Origin: Peptacetobacter hiranonis
Lineage (GTDB): Bacteria; Bacillota; Clostridia; Peptostreptococcales; Peptostreptococcaceae
Assembly: GCF_008151785.1 (NCBI RefSeq)
Contig: NZ_CP036523.1
Coordinates: 1,886,019-1,910,018, forward strand
Direction of reading: 5' to 3'
DNA: 24,000 nucleotides
A model generated the notes under the pieces. It saw only the letters and a program-made list of their open reading frames with translations. It was not told the DNA's origin and did not search any database. This document shows, piece after piece, positions 1 to 13,773 of the stretch. The position numbers were made by a program, and so were the translations under genes. Numbering within the stretch: the first letter of the stretch is position 1; each line of letters begins with the position of its first letter.

Positions 1-661
1 CTTTCTTAGCTTCTGCTCTAAGTATAGCTGACTGTTTTTCACCTTCTGCCTGAAGGATAGATGCAGATTTATTACCTTCTGCCTGAAGTATTGCTTCTCT
101 TCTTTCACGTTCAGCTCTCATCTGTTTTTCCATTGCAACCTGTATATCATGAGGAGGCATTATATTTTTAAGTTCTACTCGATTTACTTTTATACCCCAT
201 TTATCAGTAGCTTCATCTAATATAGTTCTCATCTTAGCATTGATTATATCTCTTGAAGTAAGAGTTTCATCAAGGTCTAATTCACCTATTATATTTCTTA
301 AAGTAGTAGCTGTTAAATTTTCTATAGCTGATATAGGATTAGCTATTTCGAATACATACTTAACCGGATCAGTTACCTTATAATAAACTACTGTATCTAT
401 CTGCATAGTAACATTGTCCTTTGTGATAACTGGCTGTGGTGGGAAATCAACAACTAATTCTCTAAGGTCTATAATATACGCCATTCTATCTATAAATGGT
501 ACTAAGAAGTGAACTCCTGTTTTAGCTTCTTTTCTAAATTTTCCAAGTCTCATTATAATACCGACTTTTGACTGTTTTATAACCTTTACACAAGAAAGAG
601 CTATAAGTACAACAGCTACAATTAGTACTAAATTTATTATCGTTTTTACTACTCCTGTCAT
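1..661 (-). CDS. SPFH/band-7 (stomatin/prohibitin-like, QmcA/YbbK-type) membrane protein; its C-terminal part runs off the left edge of the window
   Basis: Absent from the ORF track because the frame is open to position 1. ATG at 661-659 lies 7 nt after a GGAGG. The translation is MTGVVKTIINLVLIVAVVLIALSCVKVIKQSKVGIIMRLGKFRKEAKTGVHFLVPFIDRM...KVNRVELKNIMPPHDIQVAMEKQMRAERERREAILQAEG... This shows an N-terminal TM anchor, an SPFH core and an Ala/Glu-rich coiled-coil tail. It sits directly downstream of an NfeD gene, its canonical partner. Confidence 0.85.
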   Translation of the reverse strand, partial: MTGVVKTIINLVLIVAVVLIALSCVKVIKQSKVGIIMRLGKFRKEAKTGVHFLVPFIDRMAYIIDLRELVVDFPPQPVITKDNVTMQIDTVVYYKVTDPVKYVFEIANPISAIENLTATTLRNIIGELDLDETLTSRDIINAKMRTILDEATDKWGIKVNRVELKNIMPPHDIQVAMEKQMRAERERREAILQAEGNKSASILQAEGEKQSAILRAEAKK

Positions 662-719
662 AATGACACCTCCATTAATCTATTCCTTTTATATGTTTTT
701 AGATAATCTAAAATACAAA

Positions 720-1154
720 CTACTTAGTTACAACTAACTTAACACCATCTATTCTAACTACTTTTACTTTTTCACCCTTTTTATAAGTTACTTCTTTTTC
801 AGACACAGCTGTCCATTTTTCCCCTTCTAAATTTACTATCCCATATGCAATATTTGATACATCTTTTTCCACAATAGCATATTTTCCAATAAGGGCATCT
901 ATATTAGTATTAGAAATATAGCTTTCGTCTTTTTTTACCATTAATTTTGTAGCTATAAAAAGCATTATACTTGAACTAACTCCAAATATTACTACCTGCA
1001 TAGGAATACTTTCAATATAAGTAGTTAAAAACATAGTGGCTAATGCTCCAAAACTAAACCAGATTAATGTAAGTCCCGCTGTAAACATCTCTCCTATTCC
1101 AAATATAACGGCAACCGCTAACCAAACTAGCTTTATATTTATTCCTAAAAGCAT
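720..1154 (-). CDS. NfeD-family membrane protein (YbbJ-like), partner of the SPFH protein
   Basis: 144 aa with three or four N-terminal hydrophobic helices, then a C-terminal soluble OB-like NfeD segment (GKYAIVEKDVSNIAYGIVNLEGEKWTAVSEKEVTYKKGEKVKVVRIDGVKLVVTK). The nfeD-SPFH gene order is classical. Confidence 0.8.
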   Translation of the reverse strand: MLLGINIKLVWLAVAVIFGIGEMFTAGLTLIWFSFGALATMFLTTYIESIPMQVVIFGVSSSIMLFIATKLMVKKDESYISNTNIDALIGKYAIVEKDVSNIAYGIVNLEGEKWTAVSEKEVTYKKGEKVKVVRIDGVKLVVTK

Positions 1155-1325
1155 ATATACTCCCTCCTTTCAAGAATTATACTTTTTTTAATTGCTTTAT
1201 CGTTTTCTTTTTTCTTATTATAGTACATATTTTGTTTTCAATGATTACAAAAAAGTATCAAATTTTTCTAATTTTAATTAATTTTTTCAATTTTGTAATT
1301 TTTTCTTCTCGATTTACAACTTTAT

Positions 1326-2837
1326 TTACAATATTTCAAATTCTTTCATTATATACGGAATTTTTTCTATAATATCAGTAGCATTAACAGTGTATTTTTC
1401 TTCAGCTATTTTGTCACCGATATATCCATGTAAATAAGCACCTACTACAGCTGCTTCAAATAAATTCATTCTTTGTCCTGCTAACGATGTTATTATACCT
1501 GTTAGGCAATCTCCCATTCCACCATTTGCCATGGCACTATTTCCAGTCATATTTATATATGTAGTATATCCATCTGTTATAACTGTTCTATTTCCTTTTA
1601 AAAGTACTATTGATTTAAGGTTTCTAGCTGCTTCCTTAGCTGCATCTATCCTATTTTCATTTATATACTCCATAGAAAATCCTGTTATTCTTGATAATTC
1701 TGCTGGATGTGGAGTGATTAAAGTCTCAACATTACTATTTTTTAAAATATCTTTATTGTTTTTTAAGCTGTTTATTCCATCTGCATCTATAATCACAGGA
1801 CATTTTACTATTTTTAAAATCTCCTCTAATATATTTAAAGTTGTTTTATTATCTCCCATACCAGGACCAATTCCTATAGCATTACTATTTTCAATAAGCT
1901 TTTTCACTCGTTCCTCTTCAGAATAGTTTACTGTCATAGCCTCCGTAAAAACTGTGCATAGTTTTTCTTGAACATCTTCATCACTTATAAGAGTAACCAG
2001 TCCACTTCCAGTTTTTACTGCTGATTCAGTCGCAATCTTGGCTGCTCCATAAAAACCTCTACTTCCTGCCACTATGCTAACTCTTCCAAAATTTCCTTTA
2101 TGTGCGTTTTTATCCTTTTTATTTATAAATCTTGCAATTTCACTTTTATCCATTATAAATTCACCATTATGAAATTTATCTTTTATAAATTTAGGTACTC
2201 CTATTTCTTCTACAACAATCTCTCCTGTATATTCATCTGACCTATAGTTTAAAAATCCCCTTTTATAAAATTCGAAACTTATAGTTTTATATGCTTTTAC
2301 AGCAATGCCTCTTATTTCACCTATATCGCTATCTAATCCAGATGATATATCTATAGCATATGTTTTTTTAGAAAATCTATTAATTAAATCTATAGCCTCT
2401 GCAAAAATTCCTCCAACATCTCTCTTTAAACCAGTTCCAAATATAGCATCTACACAAGCATCTGAATTTTTTAAAGCTTCTTCTAGATCTATCCTATTTT
2501 TATCATCTAAAAATCTAAGATTTACACCCATATTCTCAAGAATTTTAAAATTAATTAAAGAGCACTCAGTCAATTTTTCTTTTTTTCCAACCAAAAATAC
2601 TTCTACTTTCTTTCCTATTACAGAAAGTTTTCTAGCTATTCCAAGTCCATCTCCACCATTATTCCCAACTCCACATACAAGCGTATAAGAGTTATTTTCA
2701 TCTATATCTAAATTTTTAATCGCTGAATTTACAGCATTTTCCATCATTACAATTAATGGAATTTCAAGCTCTGTTACACACGCATTATCCATATTTTTAG
2801 TAAGATTAGAAGTTCCTACTAACATCAAAATCACCAA
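1326..2837 (-). CDS. nnr: Bifunctional NAD(P)H-hydrate repair enzyme (N-terminal epimerase, C-terminal ADP-dependent dehydratase)
   Basis: 503 aa. The YjeF-N motif GVGNNGGDGLGIARKL is in the N half. The carbohydrate-kinase-like C half contains HKGNFGRVSIVAGSRGFYGAAKIA, GPGMG and GGMGDCLTGIITSL. The start is uncertain: GTG at 2837 or ATG at 2825. Confidence 0.9.
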   Translation of the reverse strand: MVILMLVGTSNLTKNMDNACVTELEIPLIVMMENAVNSAIKNLDIDENNSYTLVCGVGNNGGDGLGIARKLSVIGKKVEVFLVGKKEKLTECSLINFKILENMGVNLRFLDDKNRIDLEEALKNSDACVDAIFGTGLKRDVGGIFAEAIDLINRFSKKTYAIDISSGLDSDIGEIRGIAVKAYKTISFEFYKRGFLNYRSDEYTGEIVVEEIGVPKFIKDKFHNGEFIMDKSEIARFINKKDKNAHKGNFGRVSIVAGSRGFYGAAKIATESAVKTGSGLVTLISDEDVQEKLCTVFTEAMTVNYSEEERVKKLIENSNAIGIGPGMGDNKTTLNILEEILKIVKCPVIIDADGINSLKNNKDILKNSNVETLITPHPAELSRITGFSMEYINENRIDAAKEAARNLKSIVLLKGNRTVITDGYTTYINMTGNSAMANGGMGDCLTGIITSLAGQRMNLFEAAVVGAYLHGYIGDKIAEEKYTVNATDIIEKIPYIMKEFEIL

Positions 2838-2915
2838 TCTTTCTATTTTATTTTTTTATATTCTACTTCTCAAGGATATTTTAACATTTTTCTTTAATTA
2901 TTTTAATAATTCTAA

Positions 2916-3974
2916 TTAATCATCATCTTCTTCATCGTCATCATTATTCTCGCTATTATAATCATTATCGTCACTATCATCGTCATCATCAGTGTTATTT
3001 CTACTTGAATCTTTTTCTTTTATCTCTTCTCTATCGTTGTCGTCATCTTTATAATCATTTACAGAATTATTGTTTTTACTGTTATTTGAGCGTGCTTTAT
3101 TTTTATAATAGTCCTCTATCTCGTCTATATCATCATCGTCATCATCTTCATAACCTTCGCTTCTATCCTCTAGCTCATCTAGTATCTCCTCTCTCAAATA
3201 AGCATATTTACCGTCTTTTAACATTTGGTTAAGCTTATCTATTGTCATACCTTCAATATCGTCCTCTTCTATCATCTGCATCGCTGCATATTCACCCATT
3301 GAAATTTCAGTATTTTTATTCTGCTGTATCTTATTTTTAGCTACTCTTATATACATAATATTTAAACCTTTAAACTTCTGGCTTATCAATTTTTTTATTT
3401 CTTTTTCGTAAGCTATATCGTCAGCACCTTCAAAACAAAGTGCTACCAATACTCTTCCATTTTTATTATTTTTAGAATCTTGTTTTATCTGTTTATAAAG
3501 CTGATCTAAGACTACAGCAAAGTCGTCATCATCTGATATATTCAAGTTTCCGTTTATTAATGATGCAGAATTTACTTTTTTATTTTTATCAAGATTTAGC
3601 TCTAAACTACTTCCATTTTCATCAAATGATACAGTAGCATAAGACTTAGGAGATGATGTATATATCACAGTCCCCACAATAATAGCTATTGTTGCAGCTA
3701 CTGTTACCAATCTTTTATAAACTGTACTCATCTTCTTTTTATTTCTTTCCTTTTTTTCATTGAAATCTATAACATTAGATTTTTCCTGATTTTCTTCCTT
3801 TTCAGTATCTACAATACTACTTTCATCAGCATTATATAAATCTTCTTCTAAGAAATATATCTTGTCACCGACATTCATTCCTTCTTTATTTTTTATTCTT
3901 AAAAATTCTGATTCGTTGGTAACAACTATCGAATATTCGTCCTTAATCTCTATAATAATTCCTTTATATAGCAT
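2916..3974 (-). CDS. rsgI: Anti-sigma-I factor, RsgI-like: N-terminal RsgI domain, one TM helix, extracytoplasmic domain, poly-acidic tail
   Basis: The N-terminus MLYKGIIIEIKDEYSIVVTNESEFLRIKNKEGMNVGDKIYF matches the RsgI N-terminal anti-sigma domain pattern. There is a single TM helix (LVTVAATIAIIVGTVIYT). I place the start at ATG 3974 (SD GGGGAGA upstream) rather than the track start 3998, which overlaps sigI. The gene begins 2 nt after the sigI stop. Confidence 0.7.
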   Translation of the reverse strand: MLYKGIIIEIKDEYSIVVTNESEFLRIKNKEGMNVGDKIYFLEEDLYNADESSIVDTEKEENQEKSNVIDFNEKKERNKKKMSTVYKRLVTVAATIAIIVGTVIYTSSPKSYATVSFDENGSSLELNLDKNKKVNSASLINGNLNISDDDDFAVVLDQLYKQIKQDSKNNKNGRVLVALCFEGADDIAYEKEIKKLISQKFKGLNIMYIRVAKNKIQQNKNTEISMGEYAAMQMIEEDDIEGMTIDKLNQMLKDGKYAYLREEILDELEDRSEGYEDDDDDDIDEIEDYYKNKARSNNSKNNNSVNDYKDDDNDREEIKEKDSSRNNTDDDDDSDDNDYNSENNDDDEEDDD

Positions 3975-3976
3975 AA

Positions 3977-4645
3977 TTATCTCCCCTTCTTTATCCACAG
4001 TTTTAAATTTCTATATCCTCTAAAGAGTATAATTATAACTGTTATAATAAACAACTTGCTCTTTCTAATCACTTTTTCGCTTACATCAAACCTATCAGAC
4101 ATATTTTTTATAGGTAATCTCTTTTTCATAAACATGAAATCTGTTATATCTTTTTCTTTACTAGATTTTTCAGATATGTCTATTGCTTTTTCTCTAGTAT
4201 CTTTATGCTTTGGAGCCTCATTTACAAGTTCTTCAAAACCAAATCCAAATTCCTCTATTTCTTCTTTTAATTGATTTATCTCGTTTATAGTAAACTCTCT
4301 ATTCAAATCCTCTTTGTCGTGATCTTCTAAATTCTCTACTAAGTCAGTTCCCTTTTCTTTATATTCTTCTATAGATTTATTTTTACTGTACTTGTTCTCT
4401 TTTTCAAAGAAATTTTTCAATCTGCTCTCGATTACTAACCTAGAAAAAGCATAAAAATCTCCTTTTTCTTCTTTGTATTTTTCTATAGCTTCTACAAAAG
4501 CTATCATACCTATGCTGTATTCGTCATCATTTTCTATAGACACATACCTTCCTGTGAATTTACTTATACAAGAAATTATAAATGGTATATGTTTTTCTAT
4601 AAATTCTTCGCTTACCCGAATTTCCTTTGTTTTTATATTTTCCAT
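3977..4645 (-). CDS. sigI: RNA polymerase sigma factor, SigI family
   Basis: 222 aa. The sigma-70 region-2-like segment (YSIGMIAFVEAIEKYKEEKGDFYAFSRLVIESRLKNFF) and the SigI-type C-terminal domain (RLPIKNMSDRFDVSEKVIRKSKLFIITVIIIL) are present. It lies immediately upstream of an RsgI-type gene. Confidence 0.75.
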   Translation of the reverse strand: MENIKTKEIRVSEEFIEKHIPFIISCISKFTGRYVSIENDDEYSIGMIAFVEAIEKYKEEKGDFYAFSRLVIESRLKNFFEKENKYSKNKSIEEYKEKGTDLVENLEDHDKEDLNREFTINEINQLKEEIEEFGFGFEELVNEAPKHKDTREKAIDISEKSSKEKDITDFMFMKKRLPIKNMSDRFDVSEKVIRKSKLFIITVIIILFRGYRNLKLWIKKGR

Positions 4646-4917
4646 ATAATCCTACCTTCTCTATTCCAAAAATAATTTCTAAACAAAATATTTTAATAAA
4701 TTTTCTATTTTTCTTTTTATTATATAATACAATAAATTTTCAGAATTTAGGTAAGTTTTATATTACAAATAAAATCAAATTATATAAATTTTTCCATCAA
4801 ATTTTAAATTTTTTTAACATCGCTAAACACTAGTATTTTCAATGTTTATATTTTCTATTTTTATCAATAAAATATATCAAATTTTCTAAAAACTTCAAAA
4901 AATTTTAAATTTTATTG

Positions 4918-4946
4918 TTGACAGAAAAAAATCTCTGAGCTACAAT
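4918..4946 (+). promoter_or_regulatory. Sigma-A type promoter of the ABC importer leader (TTGACA-17 nt-TACAAT)
   Basis: TTGACA at 4918-4923, exactly 17 nt of spacer, TACAAT at 4941-4946. The predicted TSS is near 4953. Confidence 0.65.
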
Positions 4947-4971
4947 AGGAACCATAGAAAATGAACTACAA

Positions 4972-4986
4972 AATTTTCAGAAAAAT
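4972..4986 (+). promoter_or_regulatory. CodY-box-like operator (AATTTTCAGAAAAAT)
   Basis: 14 of 15 matches to the Firmicute CodY consensus AATTTTCWGAAAATT. It sits about 20-35 nt downstream of the predicted TSS of an amino-acid-type importer operon. A weaker box (13/15) lies at 4880-4894, upstream of the -35. Confidence 0.35.
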
Positions 4987-5044
4987 ATTTTAAATTTTTA
5001 ATTATTAAACGAAGAAGAATTATTAAGGAAAAGGAGAGAACGTT

Positions 5045-5095
5045 ATGAAGACTTTAAAGAATAAACAGAGACGATTTTATTATAGCCACTATTAG
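5045..5095 (+). CDS. Leader peptide 1, 16 codons, MKTLKNKQRRFYYSHY (3 Tyr in the last 5 codons)
   Basis: GGAG at 5033-5036 lies exactly 8 nt before ATG 5045; the stop TAG is at 5093-5095. Tyr codons are at 5078-5083 and 5090-5092. The ORF end overlaps an RNA segment that can pair downstream. It is followed by two intrinsic terminators and then the permease gene. Confidence 0.55.
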   Translation: MKTLKNKQRRFYYSHY

Positions 5096-5210
5096 ATCGG
5101 TTTGTATCGATTCGATGCGAATAGGTACAGGCCGTTGGGATTTTTACGACTGTATCTATGTTGGCTAAGTTTCGATTTGTTTGTTTTGTAAAGTTTTTAT
5201 AAAATATATC

Positions 5211-5244
5211 GGCCACATAGAGCGAATACTATGTGGCTTTTTTT
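5211..5244 (+). terminator. Leader 1 intrinsic terminator A
   Basis: GCCACATAG (5212-5220) / CTATGTGGC (5229-5237), an 8-nt loop, then T7. Confidence 0.75.
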
Positions 5245-5282
5245 AATATATTTATATATAAATTATTTTTATATGAATATTT

Positions 5283-5321
5283 AGGCCGCATAGAAATCTA
5301 AACTATGCGGCCTTTATTTTT
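5283..5321 (+). terminator. Leader 1 intrinsic terminator B (tandem)
   Basis: AGGCCGCATAG (5283-5293) / CTATGCGGCCT (5303-5313), a 9-nt loop, then TTATTTTT. Confidence 0.75.
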
Positions 5322-5395
5322 ACAATTTTTTACTTTGAAAGTTTAGTTATTAAAAATAAAAATCAAAAAAGTTTTTAAAAGGAGTGTTTAAATTT

Positions 5396-6235
5396 ATGAT
5401 TTCAGTAGTTACACAAAGTTTAATTTTAGCAATTATGGCGATTGGGGTATACATTACCTTCAAAATACTAGACTTCCCAGATATGACAGCAGATGGAAGT
5501 TACACAATGGGAGCTGCAATATCAGCAGCAGCACTTGCGGGAGGATTAAATCCACTAGTTGGAGTTTTACTTGCAGTAGTTGGAGGAGCTTTAGCAGGAA
5601 TGGTTACAGGTCTTCTTCACATAAAAGTAAAAATCTCAAATCTATTATCAGGAATACTAACAATGGGGATGCTTTACTCAATAAATCTTAGAATAATGGG
5701 AAAATCAAATATACCACTATTCACATTCCCTAATCTATTCAAAGGTAATATACCTCCAGTAGTAATAGCACTTATATTCGTATTAATAGCAAAAATATTA
5801 CTTGATCTATTCTTAAAAACAGGACTTGGATACACATTAAAAGGTGTTGGAGATAATGAACAGATGATAAAATCACTTGGAATAAACATAGGAAATATAA
5901 AAATATTAGGACTTATGATATCAAATGCTTTAATAGCATTATCTGGTGCTCTAATGGCACAGTTCCAAGGATTTGCAGACGTAACAATGGGAATTGGTAC
6001 CCTAGTACTTGGTATAGCATCAATAATAATCGGACTTACATTATTCAAAAAAATCAGAGCTGTAAAAGCTACAACAGCAATACTAATAGGTGCTTTCATC
6101 TACCAGTTCACTATCTACTTCGCACTAAACTTAGGAATGCTTTCTACAGATTTAAAACTTATAAGCTCACTTGTAATCGTTACATTCTTAGCAGTTGGTA
6201 ATCTTCAGTTAAAAAAGAAAGCTGAAAGTAAATAA
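5396..6235 (+). CDS. ABC importer permease (COG4120-type, branched-chain-permease-like fold)
   Basis: Highly hydrophobic multi-TM protein (MISVVTQSLILAIMAIGVYITFKILDFPDMTADGSYTMGAAISAAALAGG...). I prefer ATG 5396 over the track's GTG 5384, because GTG 5384 overlaps the SD AAAGGAG (5378-5384). It is followed by the cognate ATPase and SBP genes. Confidence 0.85.
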   Translation: MISVVTQSLILAIMAIGVYITFKILDFPDMTADGSYTMGAAISAAALAGGLNPLVGVLLAVVGGALAGMVTGLLHIKVKISNLLSGILTMGMLYSINLRIMGKSNIPLFTFPNLFKGNIPPVVIALIFVLIAKILLDLFLKTGLGYTLKGVGDNEQMIKSLGINIGNIKILGLMISNALIALSGALMAQFQGFADVTMGIGTLVLGIASIIIGLTLFKKIRAVKATTAILIGAFIYQFTIYFALNLGMLSTDLKLISSLVIVTFLAVGNLQLKKKAESK

Positions 6236-6343
6236 AAATATAAATAAACAAAAGAAAAAAATATGTAACAAAATAAATCAAATAATAAAATACAGAATAA
6301 TCAATATTTTCAAATATTTATATCACTAAAAGGAGAGATAAAA

Positions 6344-7099
6344 ATGCTACAGCTAAAAAAAATAACTAAAACCTTCCCAAATCCATGTGGAGATGATAAT
6401 ACAGTTTTAAACAAACTTTCAATAGATATACCAGACGGAGAATTTGTATGCATCGTAGGAAGTAATGGTACTGGTAAATCCACTTTATTAAATATAATCT
6501 CTGGATTATTAAAAGAAACATCAGGACAGATTTTATTAGATGGAACAGATATTAGTAATCTTCCTGAACACAAAAAAACTCAGGTAATCAGTAGAGTTTT
6601 CCAAAATCCTAGCTTAGGAACTTGCCCTTCAATGACAGTTAGAGAAAATCTTTCTCTAGCATTAAATAAAGGGAAACTTTTAAATCTTAGAAAATGTCTA
6701 AGACATACAGATGATACACTTGAATCTTTATTAGAAGGTATATCACTTGATTTAAAAAAATTCCTTGATACACAGGTTCAGTTCTTATCTGGTGGACAAA
6801 GACAGTCATTATCGCTAATAATGTCTTGTCTAGCAGATCCAAAGGTACTACTACTTGACGAACATACAGCAGCACTAGATCCAAAAACATCAAATGAAGT
6901 AATAGCTCTTACTAACGACATAGTTAGAAAGAAAAACATAACTACACTTATGGTTACTCATAATCTTAAACACGCTCTAGAATACGGAGATAGACTTGTT
7001 ATGCTACACAAAGGAGAAATTGTAATGGATGTTACTGGCGAAGATAAAAAAAATATGACTGTTGAAGATATTTTAGAAAAATTCGAATACGCTGTATAA
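6344..7099 (+). CDS. ABC importer ATP-binding protein (COG1101-type)
   Basis: Walker A GSNGTGKST, ABC signature LSGGQRQ, Walker B LLLDEHTAALD and H-loop VTHN are all present. The SD AAAGGAGAG precedes the ATG. Confidence 0.9.
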   Translation: MLQLKKITKTFPNPCGDDNTVLNKLSIDIPDGEFVCIVGSNGTGKSTLLNIISGLLKETSGQILLDGTDISNLPEHKKTQVISRVFQNPSLGTCPSMTVRENLSLALNKGKLLNLRKCLRHTDDTLESLLEGISLDLKKFLDTQVQFLSGGQRQSLSLIMSCLADPKVLLLDEHTAALDPKTSNEVIALTNDIVRKKNITTLMVTHNLKHALEYGDRLVMLHKGEIVMDVTGEDKKNMTVEDILEKFEYAV

Positions 7100-7189
7100 C
7101 AAAATTTACCAGACTCAAATATTATTAAAAAACTAAAAAAATACCAACCAAACCAAACTAAAAAATACTAAAAATCGGAGGACACTATT

Positions 7190-8191
7190 ATGAAAATTAA
7201 CAAGAAATTAATCGCACTTATAACTACAGGAATTTTATCAATTTCAATGCTTACTGGCTGTTCAAGTGGAGGTGAATCTACTTCTTCGGACTCAGTTAAG
7301 AAAGTAGGTATAACCCAGCTTGTAGAACATCCATCTCTTGATCAGACTAAAGAAGGATTCATAAAAGCATTAGAAGACAATGGTTATAAAGACGGAGAAA
7401 ATGTAGAAATAGACTATCAAAATGCTCAAAATGATAACCCCACTTCTCAGACAATTGCTAGTAATTTCGTAAATGACAAAAAAGATTTAATCTATGCAAT
7501 ATCTACTCCATCAGCTCAAGCTGCATTCAATGCAACACAAGATATTCCGGTATTATTCACAGCTGTAACAGATCCAGTAGAGGCAGGCCTTGTAAAATCT
7601 TTAGATAACAAAGACGGAGGAAATGTATCAGGTACTTCTGACTTCTTATCAATAGACAAAACTATGTCTTTAGTTGAAAAATTAACTCCACAGGCTAAAA
7701 AAATAGCTGTAATATATTCTACAAGTGAAGTTAATTCTAAAGTTCAGGTTGATTCTTTAAAAGAATATGCTAAAACTAAAGGCTGGGAAGTAATAGAAAA
7801 AGGAATCAGTGCATCTTCAGAAGTAAATCAGGCTATAACTTCAGTTGTAGGAAAAGCAGATGTTCTTTACGTTCCAACAGACAACCTAGTTGTATCTTCA
7901 ATGCCTATAATAGCTAAAGTTGCAAATGAAAATAAATTACCTATAATCGCATCTGATGAAGGTTCTGTAACATCTGGAGCTCTTGCTTGTGGTGGTGTTG
8001 ACTACTATCAGTTAGGATACAAAACTGGTGAAATGGCAGTTCAGATATTAAAAGGTGAAAAACAGCCTTCTGACCTAGCTGTAGAAACTATGGACGAACC
8101 AGTTATAACTATGAATGAAGACACTATGAAAACTTTAGGTATAGAAAAACCAGCTGATATTGACGTAAAACTTGTTAAAACAGAAAATTAG
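7190..8191 (+). CDS. Lipoprotein solute-binding protein 1 of the importer (COG2984 / ABC_sub_bind family)
   Basis: Signal peptide plus lipobox LTGCSSG. The core KKVGITQLVEHPSLDQTKEGF...TPSAQAA...FTAVTDPVEAGLV...GTSD is typical of this family. SD is GGAGGA. Confidence 0.85.
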   Translation: MKINKKLIALITTGILSISMLTGCSSGGESTSSDSVKKVGITQLVEHPSLDQTKEGFIKALEDNGYKDGENVEIDYQNAQNDNPTSQTIASNFVNDKKDLIYAISTPSAQAAFNATQDIPVLFTAVTDPVEAGLVKSLDNKDGGNVSGTSDFLSIDKTMSLVEKLTPQAKKIAVIYSTSEVNSKVQVDSLKEYAKTKGWEVIEKGISASSEVNQAITSVVGKADVLYVPTDNLVVSSMPIIAKVANENKLPIIASDEGSVTSGALACGGVDYYQLGYKTGEMAVQILKGEKQPSDLAVETMDEPVITMNEDTMKTLGIEKPADIDVKLVKTEN

Positions 8192-8255
8192 ATTTTCAAA
8201 ATATAATTAGAGATAATACTAAAAAAACAAAATCTAAAAAATTTTCAAAAAACTA

Positions 8256-8284
8256 TTGACACTGTGTATTTTATATTCTAGAAT
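8256..8284 (+). promoter_or_regulatory. Sigma-A type promoter of leader 2 (TTGACA-17 nt-TAGAAT)
   Basis: TTGACA at 8256-8261, a 17-nt spacer, TAGAAT at 8279-8284. The predicted TSS is near 8291. A CodY-like 13/15 box (AATTTTCAAAAAACT, 8240-8254) abuts the -35. Confidence 0.6.
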
Positions 8285-8371
8285 ATATACAAGTTCAAAA
8301 AATAATTAATTTTCAATTAATTAAAAAAATTGAAATCAATAAACTATAACAAAAGAAAAGGAGAAACTATC

Positions 8372-8416
8372 ATGAAAACTAGACTTTATTATTACTATTA
8401 TAACCTATATATTTAG
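8372..8416 (+). CDS. Leader peptide 2, 14 codons, MKTRLYYYYYNLYI (6 Tyr, 5 of them consecutive)
   Basis: GGAG at 8360-8363 lies exactly 8 nt before ATG 8372, the same spacing as leader 1. The MKT start is also shared. Tyr codons are at 8387-8401 and 8408-8410; the stop TAG is at 8414-8416. Two intrinsic terminators and the SBP2 gene follow. Confidence 0.6.
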   Translation: MKTRLYYYYYNLYI

Positions 8417-8536
8417 AGGCTGTATCTAAACTAGCATAATGTACGGATACAGACCTCGGTAAATACAATCCAGGGCTTTGTGTCTGTGCAGGTTATAATA
8501 ATAAGTCAATTTTATGAAGTTTCATTACTTATATAT

Positions 8537-8575
8537 AAGCCGCATAGATCGAGAATTATGTGGCTTTATTTTTTT
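8537..8575 (+). terminator. Leader 2 intrinsic terminator A
   Basis: AAGCCGCATA (8537-8546) / TATGTGGCTT (8557-8566), including one G-U pair, with a 10-nt loop and a T-rich tail TTTATTTTTTT. Confidence 0.7.
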
Positions 8576-8593
8576 AGTAATATAATGATTAAT

Positions 8594-8633
8594 AAAAGCC
8601 ATGTAGTCTTAAACTATATGGCTTTTATTTTTT
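8594..8633 (+). terminator. Leader 2 intrinsic terminator B (tandem)
   Basis: AAAAGCCATGTAG (8594-8606) / CTATATGGCTTTT (8614-8626), including one G-U pair, with tail TATTTTTT. Confidence 0.7.
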
Positions 8634-8731
8634 CCCTGGAAATCAAATCAAAAACCTATCAAACGACAAATCAAATATAAATTCAAAATCAGAAACTTCA
8701 AATACACTAAAATAATTCGGAGGAAAATAAA

Positions 8732-9721
8732 ATGAAATCAAATAAAAAAATATTATCTTTAATACTATCTTTAACATTAGGAGCAACATTACTTACAGGA
8801 TGCTCAGGTGGTGGAAAATCTTCAGGATCATCTGATGAAGTAAAGAAAATAGGTATAACTCAGCTAGTTGAACATCCAGCACTTGACCAGGCAAGAGAAG
8901 GATTTATAGAAGGACTTAAAGAAAATGGTTTTGTAGAAGGAGAAAACCTAGAAGTAGATTTCCAAAATGCTCAGAACGATAACCCTACTTCTCAGACAAT
9001 AGCTAGCAACTTCGCAAATGATAAAAAAGACTTAATATTTGCAGTATCTACTCCATCTGCTCAGGCTGCATTAAATGCTACTCAGGATATACCAATAGTA
9101 TTCACAGCAGTTACAGATGCTGTTGAAGCTGGACTTGTAAAAAGCAATGAATCATCAGAAAATAATGTAACTGGTACATCTGATGCAATACCAGTAGATA
9201 AATCATTAGAACTAATAAAAAAATTCGTACCAAATGTTAAAACAATCGGTGTTGTTTGCAACACAAGTGAAATAAACTCTAAATTACAGGTAGATACTTT
9301 AAGAAAAGCTGCTGAAAAAGAAGGTATAAAAGTAATAGATAAAGGTGCAACTCAAGCAAATGAAGTTAACCAGGCGGTTGCAGCAGTTGCAAAAGAAGCT
9401 GATGTAATATTCACACCAACAGATAACCTAGTAGCATCTTCAATGCCTATAATAACTAAAGTAGCAACTGAAAATAAGATACCCGTTATAGGTTCTGAAG
9501 AAGGACATGTTGAAAATGGCGCACTTGCTTGTAATGGAATAAACTACAAAAATCTTGGTAAAAAAGCTGGAGAAATGGCAGCTCAGATACTAAAAGGTGA
9601 AAAACAACCTTCTGAAATACCAGTAGCTACTATGGAAGAAACTACAATAATAATAAACAAGTCAACAATGGAAAAACTTGGAATAAAAGATCCTCAAATA
9701 GAAAACGCAATATTTAAATAA
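8732..9721 (+). CDS. Lipoprotein solute-binding protein 2, paralog of SBP1 (COG2984 / ABC_sub_bind family)
   Basis: Lipobox LTGCSGG. It is collinear with SBP1 over the full length, with about two thirds of residues identical by eye, including the block QNAQNDNPTSQTIASNF. It has its own promoter, leader and SD (GGAGGA). Confidence 0.85.
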   Translation: MKSNKKILSLILSLTLGATLLTGCSGGGKSSGSSDEVKKIGITQLVEHPALDQAREGFIEGLKENGFVEGENLEVDFQNAQNDNPTSQTIASNFANDKKDLIFAVSTPSAQAALNATQDIPIVFTAVTDAVEAGLVKSNESSENNVTGTSDAIPVDKSLELIKKFVPNVKTIGVVCNTSEINSKLQVDTLRKAAEKEGIKVIDKGATQANEVNQAVAAVAKEADVIFTPTDNLVASSMPIITKVATENKIPVIGSEEGHVENGALACNGINYKNLGKKAGEMAAQILKGEKQPSEIPVATMEETTIIINKSTMEKLGIKDPQIENAIFK

Positions 9722-9726
9722 AAATA

Positions 9727-9747
9727 AAAAAAGTGCTATCACAGAAT
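9727..9747. terminator. Left arm of an ancestral bidirectional terminator hairpin, now split by the IS
   Basis: AAAAAAGTGCTATCACAGAA(T) is complementary to TTCTATGATAGCACTTTTT at 11216-11234 (14 bp, one mismatch). The A-run and T-run flanks fit termination of both convergent genes. Confidence 0.6.
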
Positions 9748-9753
9748 AAAATG

Positions 9754-9808
9754 GAACCTATAGAATGGACACTTGTAAAAAGGTGTTTCATCTATAGGTT
9801 CTTTTTTT
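9754..9808 (+). terminator. Strong intrinsic terminator inside the IS left end, upstream of the transposase promoter
   Basis: GAACCTATAG (9754-9763) / CTATAGGTTC (9792-9801), with an inner helix GACAC/GTGTT, then T7 (9802-9808). It is immediately followed by TATAAT (9810-9815) and the SD GAGGTGA. Confidence 0.7.
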
Positions 9809-9838
9809 GTATAATTTTAATATAGAGGTGAGTAATTT

Positions 9839-11161
9839 ATGAGTAAAAAACAATTTAGTAAAGAAGAAACATTAGAGCTATCAAAAAATCCATTTGTAAA
9901 GAATGTAAGCTGTAAATCAATAACATATACAAATGAATTTAAAATACATTTCATAACAGAATACAATAAGGGAAAAAATCCAACACAGATATTTAAAGAA
10001 GCAGGTTTTGACACTAACATCATAGGTGCAAAACGTATTAAATGCGCTAGCGAGCGATGGAGAAAGTCATATAAAGAAAATGGTATTTTGGGACTAGATG
10101 ATTCTAGAGTTAATAATTCTGGAAGACCAAGAAAAAGAAAATTAACAGATAAAGAGATAATAGATAAGAAGGATGCTGAAATAGCATATCTTAAAGCAGA
10201 GCTAGAACTAGTAAAAAAGCTAGACTTCGAAGAAAGGCAGGTGATGAATAATAAGCTACCTTCGGTGAAAATATTCAAATTAATTAATGATGTAATAAAT
10301 AAATATTGTTTAAAAAAAATGATAAAACATCTATGTATTGTTGCAGGAGTATCTAGATCTGGATTTTATAACTATTTAAAAAACAAGAATGTAATAAGCA
10401 AACAAGAAGAAAAGGATTTAGAAGCAAAAGAAATAATTCTTAAAGCATATAAGTTCAGAGGATACAAAAAAGGTTCTCGTTCAATAAAAATGATTTTAAA
10501 AAGTAAATTTAATATAATATTTAACAGAAAAAAAATTCAAAGAATAATGAAAAAATATGGAATTAAATGTCCTATTCGCGAGTCAAATCCAGCTAAACGT
10601 ATGGGAAAAGCAAGAAAAGAACATCACACAGTTCCTAATAAATTGAATAGAGAATTTAAACAAGGTATACCAGGAAAAGTACTTTTAACTGATATTACGT
10701 ATATGCCGTACGGCAATGGGAAAACAGCATATTTATCAACTGTAAAAGATTCTTCTACGAATGAAATTTTATCGTATCATTTATCGAAGAATTTAAAAAT
10801 GGATATTGTTATTTCAACTATTAACAATCTCATGTTATCAAATTCAGACAAATTACATAAAGATGCATTTATTCATTCTGATCAAGGAGTTCATTATACA
10901 AGTACTATTTTTCAGAACTTGTTAAAAAAATATAATTTAGGTCAATCTATGTCTAGAAAAGGTAATTGTTGGGACAATGCTCCGCAGGAGTCATTCTTTG
11001 GTCATATGAAAGATGAAATAGATTATAAAAGTTGCAATACATTTGAAGAGTTAAAAAGTTTAATAGATGATTATATGGATTATTATAATAATGATCGTTG
11101 TCAGTGGAATTTAAAACAGCTGACTCCTATTCAATATAGAAGTCAGCTGCTTGCTGCTTAA
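9839..11161 (+). CDS. IS3-family transposase: HTH plus leucine-zipper N-terminal part fused in frame to the DDE (rve) catalytic core
   Basis: 440 aa. The N-terminal HTH region is followed by a coiled coil (EIAYLKAELELVKKL), then a second HTH (LCIVAGVSRSGFYNYLK). The DDE core shows DITYMPY, IHSDQGVHYTS and GNCWDNAPQESFFGHMKDE. Confidence 0.9.
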   Translation: MSKKQFSKEETLELSKNPFVKNVSCKSITYTNEFKIHFITEYNKGKNPTQIFKEAGFDTNIIGAKRIKCASERWRKSYKENGILGLDDSRVNNSGRPRKRKLTDKEIIDKKDAEIAYLKAELELVKKLDFEERQVMNNKLPSVKIFKLINDVINKYCLKKMIKHLCIVAGVSRSGFYNYLKNKNVISKQEEKDLEAKEIILKAYKFRGYKKGSRSIKMILKSKFNIIFNRKKIQRIMKKYGIKCPIRESNPAKRMGKARKEHHTVPNKLNREFKQGIPGKVLLTDITYMPYGNGKTAYLSTVKDSSTNEILSYHLSKNLKMDIVISTINNLMLSNSDKLHKDAFIHSDQGVHYTSTIFQNLLKKYNLGQSMSRKGNCWDNAPQESFFGHMKDEIDYKSCNTFEELKSLIDDYMDYYNNDRCQWNLKQLTPIQYRSQLLAA

Positions 11162-11199
11162 GACTTTTTTATATATGTCCTTGACATAGGGACCATTTT

Positions 11200-11234
11200 A
11201 GAATGTTATTAAACGTTCTATGATAGCACTTTTT
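11200..11234. terminator. Right arm (plus former loop) of the ancestral bidirectional terminator split by the IS
   Basis: AGAAT is the target duplication copy, GTTATTAAACG the former apical region, and TTCTATGATAGCAC plus a T-run the arm. It is complementary to 9733-9746. Confidence 0.6.
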
Positions 11235-11304
11235 ATATATTATAAATATTTATTAGAAAATCATCATAAATATCATACTATACTTATATAGAATAATTTT
11301 ACAC

Positions 11305-13773
<2,469 letters not shown>

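Follow-up and report, generated by a model that had tools for sequence, protein, structure and literature searches.

Predicted tyrosine-codon leader-peptide attenuators ahead of tyrosine ABC importer genes in Peptacetobacter hiranonis and other Clostridia

The 24,000-nucleotide stretch of Peptacetobacter hiranonis DNA analysed here (contig NZ_CP036523.1, positions 1,886,019 to 1,910,018; called the window, and numbered from its first letter) holds an ATP-binding cassette (ABC) transporter operon with permease, ATPase and binding-protein (SBP1) genes, followed by a stand-alone gene for a second binding protein (SBP2). Ahead of each lies a leader in which a promoter, a Shine-Dalgarno (SD) sequence, a short open reading frame (ORF) containing Tyr codons and tandem intrinsic terminators follow one another. 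These two paralogous leaders, the second of which spans 8256-8635, and the control by tyrosine that their layout suggests are the subject of this analysis. The features are as follows.

4918-4946, + strand: leader-1 promoter, TTGACA-17-TACAAT (-35 at 4918-4923, -10 at 4941-4946), 11 of 12 consensus matches, transcription start site near 4953
5033-5095, + strand: leader-1 SD GGAG (5033-5036) and ORF (5045-5095); start, frame and stop position conserved in 36 leaders
5209-5245, + strand: terminator 1, with arms at 5211-5220 (5', shared with the antiterminator) and 5229-5238 (3'), followed by a U tract
5283-5321, + strand: terminator 2, hairpin 5283-5313 and then a U tract; arm sequence identical to that of terminator 1
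5397-8191, + strand: regulated operon, with permease (5397-6235, ATG start), ABC ATPase (6344-7099) and SBP1 (7190-8191)
8256-8284, + strand: leader-2 promoter, TTGACA-17-TAGAAT
8359-8416, + strand: leader-2 SD and ORF (8372-8416), product MKTRLYYYYYNLYI and stop, with five Tyr codons in a row at 8387-8401
8399-8497, + strand: leader-2 switch, segment 0 at 8399-8407, segment 1 at 8416-8428, segment 2 at 8442-8456, segment 3 at 8474-8497
8536-8635, + strand: leader-2 tandem terminators, 8537-8566 and 8593-8627, with a U tract after each
8732-9721, + strand: SBP2, stand-alone gene behind leader 2, lipoprotein-type binding protein

The initial annotation of this DNA, made from its letters alone, had proposed for leader 1 a TTGACA-17-TACAAT promoter, a 16-codon ORF preceded by GGAG and two intrinsic terminators behind it, and each of these was found where it had been placed. 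GGAG sits 8 nt ahead of the ATG at 5045, the ORF encodes MKTLKNKQRRFYYSHY followed by stop, and the terminator hairpins occupy 5211-5238 and 5283-5313. In a scan of 4000-11500 the leader-1 promoter and its leader-2 twin at 8256 were the joint top promoter-like sites, and the same interval contained 7 terminator-like sites against 2.1 +/- 1.5 in shuffled sequence. The aromatic codons of the leader-1 ORF are F at 5075 and Y at 5078, 5081 and 5090; the leader-2 ORF has 6 Tyr codons in total. Counting both strands of the whole window, 16 ORFs of 10-25 codons begin with an SD and ATG, and just two of them contain at least 3 Tyr codons: the leader-1 ORF and its paralogue at 8372. The 5' part of leader 1 contains another small ORF (4961-4993, MNYKIFRKIF, SD AGGA), which is common only to the closest relative (locus L001), was dismissed as a candidate and is probably not meaningful.

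The binding proteins link the operon to tyrosine. SBP1 and SBP2, both of lipoprotein type, match NCBIfam TrpX at ~300 bits, which is under the 390-bit equivalog cut-off of that family. By BLASTP, SBP1 shares 64% and SBP2 62% identity with Clostridioides difficile CD0873; matched to its structure, PDB 6HNI, they give E = 3e-125 and E = 1.6e-116. This tyrosine-binding adhesin, a vaccine candidate that has been linked to p-cresol production, was crystallised with tyrosine bound; of the 20 amino acids only tyrosine stabilises it, with a dissociation constant (KD) of 94 uM (PMC6816091). Among the pocket residues of CD0873, SBP2 retains Glu-263 and Tyr-279, and SBP1 has Asp at 263. The codons of the leaders and the homology of the cargo name the same amino acid in the window, a correspondence that is less clear for relatives with Phe-rich leaders. 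In the C. difficile locus (L008), the gene at 6001-7023 is near-identical to chain A of PDB 6HNI, that is, to CD0873, and the CD0873 operon sits behind a leader with the run YYYYY, MNTLLNNKKYYYYYSHYF. At 300-4240 this locus carries two tandem transporter operons with different leaders; behind the other leader, which is rich in Phe (MKTLLNKQVRFFSSQFS), comes a binding protein that shares ~70% identity with CD0873. The Tyr-rich leader of C. difficile strain HC132 (L028) has one extra Tyr codon, YYYYYY instead of YYYYY.

To place the two leaders in a wider family, we searched a single genome of each species for binding-protein homologues, which gave 77 usable loci whose upstream regions were examined. 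The closest relatives are Peptacetobacter species, with a binding protein that is 96% identical. A covariance model built from 36 aligned leaders of several genera found 40 full-length copies in 33 of the 77 homologous transporter loci; run on the window, it matched the two leaders and nothing else. The same leader occurs in Peptacetobacter, Asaccharospora, Clostridioides, Metaclostridioides and Terrisporobacter, as well as in many Clostridium species and some uncultured Clostridia, so that its conservation reaches over the Peptostreptococcaceae, Clostridium and other Clostridia. The relatives share one layout, an SD and ATG with an ORF of 14-21 codons and then 1-4 terminators with the arms GCCRCRYRG / CYRYGYGGC. 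Examples of their leader peptides are METLLNNKKYYYYSHYC, MITLLNNNKYYYYSQYL, MNTLNTNNLRSFYYYYQIR and MKAFANNQVNYIYYYSQFR; Phe-rich or mixed peptides include, besides the C. difficile one, MNTLINKQARFSFYSQFI in many Clostridium species and MKNLSIITMQVVFNSQFR. Conservation of both the helices and the Tyr run had been put forward as a check: the leader and its helices do recur, whereas the Tyr run is Phe-rich or mixed in some relatives.

Several signs indicate that the ORF is translated. In the 36 aligned leaders the ATG never varies, and an SD precedes it. Five distances occur between the ATG and the first of the pairing segments described below (30, 39, 42, 45 and 48 nt), all multiples of 3, whereas three non-coding spacers or loops of the same RNAs have lengths in every residue class. 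All 28 distinct ORFs are open in frame 0 and closed in frames 1 and 2. The stop codon overlaps the first base of the downstream hairpin H1 in most leaders and lies 2-3 nt before it in others, such as leader 1; in two variant leaders it is shifted 3 codons into H1. At L010 (3901-3966), L016 (3981-4046) and L022 (3799-3864), the usual stop TAG is changed to TTG or AAG, and the ORFs extend three codons to end at a TAA within the H1 5' arm. The alignment of the 36 leaders thus shows the conserved reading frame expected of a leader-peptide attenuator.

Translation of the ORF could also serve an attenuator that merely gauges the general availability or speed of ribosomes, with no amino-acid specificity, the Tyr and Phe codons being by-products of AT-richness or of pairing. 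At 29% GC the genome abounds in TAT and TTT triplets, distant members of the family have just two Phe codons, and one aromatic codon (TAT at -5) falls inside helix a, the helix formed by the ORF end. Against this, frame 0 of the leader ORFs has 74 Tyr codons and the two other frames have 21 and 27, an enrichment of about threefold. The Tyr and Phe runs lie directly 5' of the structured part, in columns outside every helix and upstream of helix a. The window's only two short ORFs with several Tyr codons are, moreover, those leading Tyr-transporter genes, and the homologue of the cargo binds tyrosine. We consider an unspecific attenuator very unlikely.

Between the ORF and the terminator there are two hairpins, H1 (5098-5110/5122-5134) and P1 (5121-5132/5148-5159). 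They vie for one strand and together are the core of the switch, the segments of which are, in leader 1:

5081-5089, + strand: segment 0, the 3' end of the ORF, pairing with 3b (helix a) when free of ribosomes
5098-5110, + strand: segment 1, the H1 5' arm, beginning 3 nt past the stop codon and covered by a terminating ribosome
5120-5134, + strand: segment 2, the shared strand, either H1 3' arm or P1 5' arm
5146-5169, + strand: segment 3, comprising the P1 3' arm (3a), the antiterminator strand (5155-5166) and the partner of the ORF end (3b, 5161-5169)
5209-5221, + strand: segment 4, antiterminator partner and terminator 5' arm
5229-5240, + strand: segment 5, terminator 3' arm

It had been suggested that the last codons of the mini-ORF pair with 5154-5167 and that this second segment overlaps a partner of the terminator 5' arm, and both pairings stand. 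In leader 1, TAGCCA (5083-5088) faces TGGCTA (5162-5167) and TAGAT (5093-5097) faces ATCTA (5154-5158). The resulting helix 0:3b is part of the minimum-energy fold of the free RNA, and compensatory changes are seen at 7 of its 9 pairs; leader 2, for example, has AACCT/AGGTT in place of AGCCA/TGGCT, a compensatory change between the two paralogues. The antiterminator joins 5155-5166 to the terminator arm at 5211-5221 by 11 pairs with one bulge. Segment 4 is common to the terminator and the antiterminator, which are therefore mutually exclusive.

Both folds are borne out by the alignment. In the OFF fold (0:3b, P1 as 2:3a, terminator as 4:5), 95.0% of the cells are paired and 14 pairs are changed on both sides; none of 500 shuffles was as good, and sliding the partners by 1-3 columns left 30-48% paired. 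In the ON fold (H1 as 1:2, antiterminator as 3:4), the corresponding values are 94.4% and 7 compensatory pairs, with 24-49% in the slid controls. Taken alone, the terminator has 95.6% of its cells paired and 3 compensatory pairs, and the antiterminator 99.0% and 2. Both window leaders fit all five helices. The duplex energies are balanced: -15.8 kcal/mol for H1, -13.2 for P1, -15.3 for the antiterminator and -16.8 for the terminator. Of the 59 columns conserved at 90% or above, 44 fall within the five helices; the other 15 are the ATG and adjacent A's, the first T of aromatic codons (three positions), the T of the stop codon, and T's in the U tract and the spacer. Apart from the five helices, these columns form no aptamer-like conserved unpaired pocket.

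The pairing of the ORF end also bears on the idea of a nascent-peptide sensor of the TnaC or SpeFL type, in which free tyrosine would be bound by a conserved C-terminus inside the exit tunnel, halting the ribosome on or close to the stop codon. A C-terminal pattern, [FY]-x-S-[QH]-[FY]-x-stop, does recur in many leaders, and MNTLINKQARFSFYSQFI is identical in several Clostridium species. The endings SHY, SQFR, NLYI, SLYI and YQIR, each directly before the stop codon, nevertheless track compensatory changes in helix a; because the peptide endings follow their helix-a partners in this way, the constraint is on the RNA and not on the peptide. Distant members have N-terminal halves that bear no relation to one another. 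Arrest at the stop codon would, in addition, cover segment 1 and terminate transcription at high tyrosine, an output that is obtained equally without a peptide sensor. We therefore regard a peptide sensor as exceedingly improbable.

The evidence favors, with a probability that we put at roughly 80%, a model in which both leaders are ribosome-mediated transcription attenuators that report charged tRNA-Tyr and control the tyrosine ABC importer. When tyrosine is scarce, the ribosome would stall on the Tyr codons, 4-9 codons ahead of the stop, covering segment 0 and leaving segment 1 free. H1 would then form and segment 3, thereby freed, would capture the terminator 5' arm, so that the polymerase would read into the transporter genes. 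With plentiful tyrosine, the ribosome would reach the stop codon and cover segment 1; P1 would form, the antiterminator strand would be locked and the terminator would form. If no ribosome is present, the ORF end would pair with segment 3b and the terminator would again be free to form.

To compare these states, the transcript was ended just before the terminator 3' arm and folded with the ribosome footprint kept single-stranded. A stall at the Tyr codons gave H1 and the antiterminator; a ribosome at the stop codon gave P1, with segment 4 unpaired from segment 3; the free RNA gave helix a, with segment 4 again unpaired from segment 3. These results were the same for both window leaders, and in silico the position of the ribosome thus selects the fold. 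Two parts of the model are inferred: stalling on Tyr codons as the signal, and the switching between the folds.

A number of observations weigh against this model or restrict it. Leader 1 carries just 3 Tyr codons and 1 Phe codon, and one of the three Tyr codons is the final one, at which stalling would look like termination. Many relatives have Phe-rich or mixed peptides (FSFYSQFI, VVFNSQFR), and part of the family may sense Phe, or Tyr together with Phe. The CD0873 residues Ala-262, Glu-263 and Tyr-279 fail to separate Tyr-type from Phe-type operons; Glu or Asp at 263 and Tyr-279 are near-universal in the retrieved binding proteins, including those of loci with TRAP-like leaders. These pocket residues therefore give no indication of the ligand of the Phe-type transporters. 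The full-length RNA, furthermore, always folds into the terminator at equilibrium, whatever the ribosome mask, and the ON state must therefore be a kinetic choice. Such a kinetic ON state is usual for attenuators. Finally, the bypass of terminator 2 in the ON state is unexplained unless a relay between terminators operates.

The tandem terminators themselves would fit such a relay. At least two terminators with near-identical arms are present in 20 of 22 leaders (those of loci L001-L043 and of the window), in sets of 2-4. Each 3' arm is able to pair with the 5' arm of the next terminator at -10 to -18 kcal/mol; in leader 1, the terminator 1 3' arm and the terminator 2 5' arm can do so at -15.0 kcal/mol. 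The variation within the arms consists of transitions that keep wobble pairing with several partners. Segment 3 could take up the first 5' arm, which would leave the 3' arm of terminator 1 to take the 5' arm of terminator 2, and so onward, in which case a single upstream decision would disarm every terminator in the row. The near-identical arms suggest a register shift of this kind, but tandem duplication, too, would explain their likeness. At L022 (3990-4045), the loop of terminator 1 contains an insertion of ~45 nt, and two intact terminators follow.

Another possible layer involves the start codon. The region around it, with the SD, is complementary to the spacer between segment 3b and the terminator, with a mean z of -2.6 against shuffles for the duplex energies of 31 leaders. 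The places are 5040-5060 with 5185-5200 in leader 1 and 8365-8380 with 8510-8530 in leader 2, an example being ATGAAAAC / GTTTTCAT. A gapless pair count for this helix picked its own register and is therefore an unfair test. It is suggestive that such a helix may block re-initiation and limit each leader to one round of translation.

Comparison with known RNA families was informative mostly below threshold. At gathering thresholds Rfam has no family anywhere in the window, and in 11 related loci it reports only c-di-GMP riboswitches and tRNA, away from the transporter leaders. In the E-value mode of Rfam, and in that mode only, a resemblance to two families becomes visible. One of them is RF04312 (trpB), at 32.9 and 31.6 bits in the window and 37-50 bits in relatives; its gathering score is 59, and the leaders are therefore not members. 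The alignment nonetheless covers the full length of the model (positions 1-107), with P1 and terminator 1 of the window on its two stems and segment 3 on its P1 and 'GGCU' shoulder. Narunsky et al. 2024 (PMC11109978) list the trpB motif, an orphan, as a 'strong riboswitch candidate'; its >900 representatives come from Firmicutes and Fusobacteria, and in most cases they precede an ABC transporter of amino-acid type that is uncharacterised. The likeness is that of a P1 whose right shoulder (GUAUCUgUg..GGCU) acts as antiterminator for an intrinsic terminator with CCRCRUAG arms, a layout that the window leaders share, with helices that covary. The trpB model differs in that it begins at P1, without ORF, helix a or H1. 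True members of the motif were sought in metagenomes with the consensus 15-mer GTATCTGTGCCGGCT; the 120 matches inspected were all chance ones, without P1 arm or terminator.

This resemblance speaks for a reading of the leaders as metabolite-binding riboswitches, in which the ligand of the P1 region would be an aromatic amino acid or a metabolite related to one, and the mini-ORF would have no role. The matches to trpB are full-length (sub-threshold, 33-50 bits, in the window and eight relatives) and the motif has the same order of P1, right-shoulder antiterminator and terminator (PMC11109978). An incidental ORF would, however, hardly keep its frame, ATG, SD and stop position far beyond chance, and the aromatic codons are conserved though they lie outside all helices. 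The repeated aromatic codon differs between paralogous leaders, and the five helices leave no conserved unpaired pocket for a ligand. The authors of the trpB motif, who placed its antiterminator in the right shoulder of P1, could themselves not exclude a classic attenuator (PMC11109978). A riboswitch, like the unspecific attenuator, is in our view very improbable.

The other family is RF02863, the Enterococcus sRNA_2410, at 23.8 bits in the window and 40-46 bits in relatives against a gathering score of 61, so that here too the leaders are not members. It aligns from the ORF end onward (5082-5262 in the window; also 974-1195 at L032). Comparing the consensus only, its closing helix resembles helix a, its inner hairpin GGUUUGUAU.../...AUACAAAC resembles H1 and GCCACGUAG corresponds to the terminator. 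Read in the frame of the leader ORF, the consensus gives ...AGC UAC UUU AGA UAG (S Y F R stop). The difference lies in how it is catalogued, as a small RNA (sRNA) gene and not as a cis-regulator. On this consensus, sRNA_2410 is probably a leader cut short by termination and belongs to a homologous attenuator. A bolder proposal, which we offer tentatively and would not bet on, is that the trpB motif and sRNA_2410 are both the 3' halves of a large family of aromatic leader-peptide attenuators, and that the tandem terminators of the leaders form a register-shift relay. If true, the trpB class and sRNA_2410 would be neither riboswitches nor sRNA genes, and Tyr, Phe or Trp codons would be chosen operon by operon. 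RNAs resembling the orphan trpB motif and the Enterococcus "sRNA" are in any case offered a testable mechanism other than a riboswitch.

The absence of a T-box, noted at the outset, was borne out. RF00230 matches nothing in the window at its gathering score and nothing in the leader at E-values up to 10, and a T-box core regular expression is absent from the transporter leaders of all 77 loci; its lone match, at L018, falls ~4 kb downstream of the gene for the binding protein and on the other strand. A reading of 4950-5250 likewise revealed no array of 9-11 (G/U)AG triplets spaced 2-3 nt, as would be bound by TRAP (MtrB). T-box control is found in Streptococcus suis, at the trpXYZ-type transporter with TrpX (PMC9382623). 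That system shares the transporter family (PF04392/TrpX-like binding protein) and transcription attenuation by tRNA charging with the leaders described here, and differs in its sensor, where tRNA touches the RNA directly.

Textbook examples of leader-peptide attenuators exist for Trp, Phe, His, Leu, Thr and Ile/Val. In the trp attenuator, region 1 of the 1:2 hairpin lies under the stalled ribosome. Like the classical leaders (trpL, pheL, hisL, leuL, thrL), those of the window have a short ORF with SD and ATG that is rich in the relevant codons, the position of the ribosome selects between overlapping terminator and antiterminator hairpins, and an untranslated leader also terminates. They differ from the classical ones in their Tyr codons, in a cargo that is an importer instead of a biosynthetic operon, and in their host, a Firmicute of the Clostridium class. 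An extra layer, H1 and P1, precedes the antiterminator, and there are 2-4 tandem terminators with the same arms. In contrast to trp, the stalled ribosome here would leave the first downstream hairpin, H1, free, and the terminating ribosome would disrupt it. The logic of the trp, phe and his attenuators that the initial annotation had invoked is thus supported by the comparative evidence, with the amendment that five segments, including H1 and P1, are involved and not three.

Among Gram-positive bacteria, where T-boxes are the rule, comparable cases of amino-acid-specific leader-peptide attenuation are the His leader upstream of hisS paralogues in bacilli (PMC2965389) and the Leu-rich attenuator peptide of Staphylococcus aureus ilv (PMC5794164). 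The present family differs from both in amino acid, RNA family and cargo, and it spans several families of Clostridia. A 2010 survey states that, until its own His example, Firmicutes had essentially no known amino-acid leader peptides (PMC2965389). The view that such attenuation is uncommon in Firmicutes agrees with that survey, which has T-boxes as dominant (PMC2965389). The further statement that no Tyr leader had been described also matches our search: none was found in the literature searched, where coverage of subscription journals was partial and an earlier description is possible. With the same coverage, we found no regulator of the CD0873 operons and no earlier account of the source of sRNA_2410, and among the C. 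difficile riboswitches surveyed in 2024 none is listed at the CD0873 operon genes (PMC11477304).

With the refinements given above, the conclusion holds that the finding adds a member with predicted Tyr specificity to the classical class of leader-peptide attenuators. Its interest lies in the amino acid that was missing from that class, in the importer cargo, in the link to a pathogen and in the prospect for orphan motifs. The presence of this leader family in front of the CD0873 operon predicts how the pathogen C. difficile switches on tyrosine uptake. The five-segment layout, in which competing hairpins would convert the stalled and the terminating state of a ribosome into opposite outcomes, is also a natural example for RNA-switch engineering.

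Some loci in the set carry other kinds of leader. At L033 (5700-5800), L035 (5740-5830), L036 and L038 (5640-5750) and L037 (5780-5870), ~9-11 (G/T)AG triplets spaced 2-3 nt are followed by a terminator, and in these operons the binding-protein gene comes first. Judged by these TRAP-site-like sequences, the transporter family may have a third type of attenuation. At L071 (5650-5910, Fusobacterium sp. MFO224), a binding-protein homologue is preceded by a consensus promoter, then AGGAGG, an ORF of 43 codons with KKWWR and a strong terminator; this arrangement may represent another design of leader, with Trp codons.

In the window, the gene for a SigI-type sigma factor (3977-4645, - strand) is divergent from the leader-1 promoter region, and a 360-aa ORF downstream of it (2916-3998) has no NCBIfam match. 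On the other side, directly after the SBP2 gene, lies an IS3-family transposase ORF (9839-11161, NCBIfam 297 bits); the closest relatives, L001 and L002, have no ORF of similar size on the same strand after the SBP2-equivalent gene.

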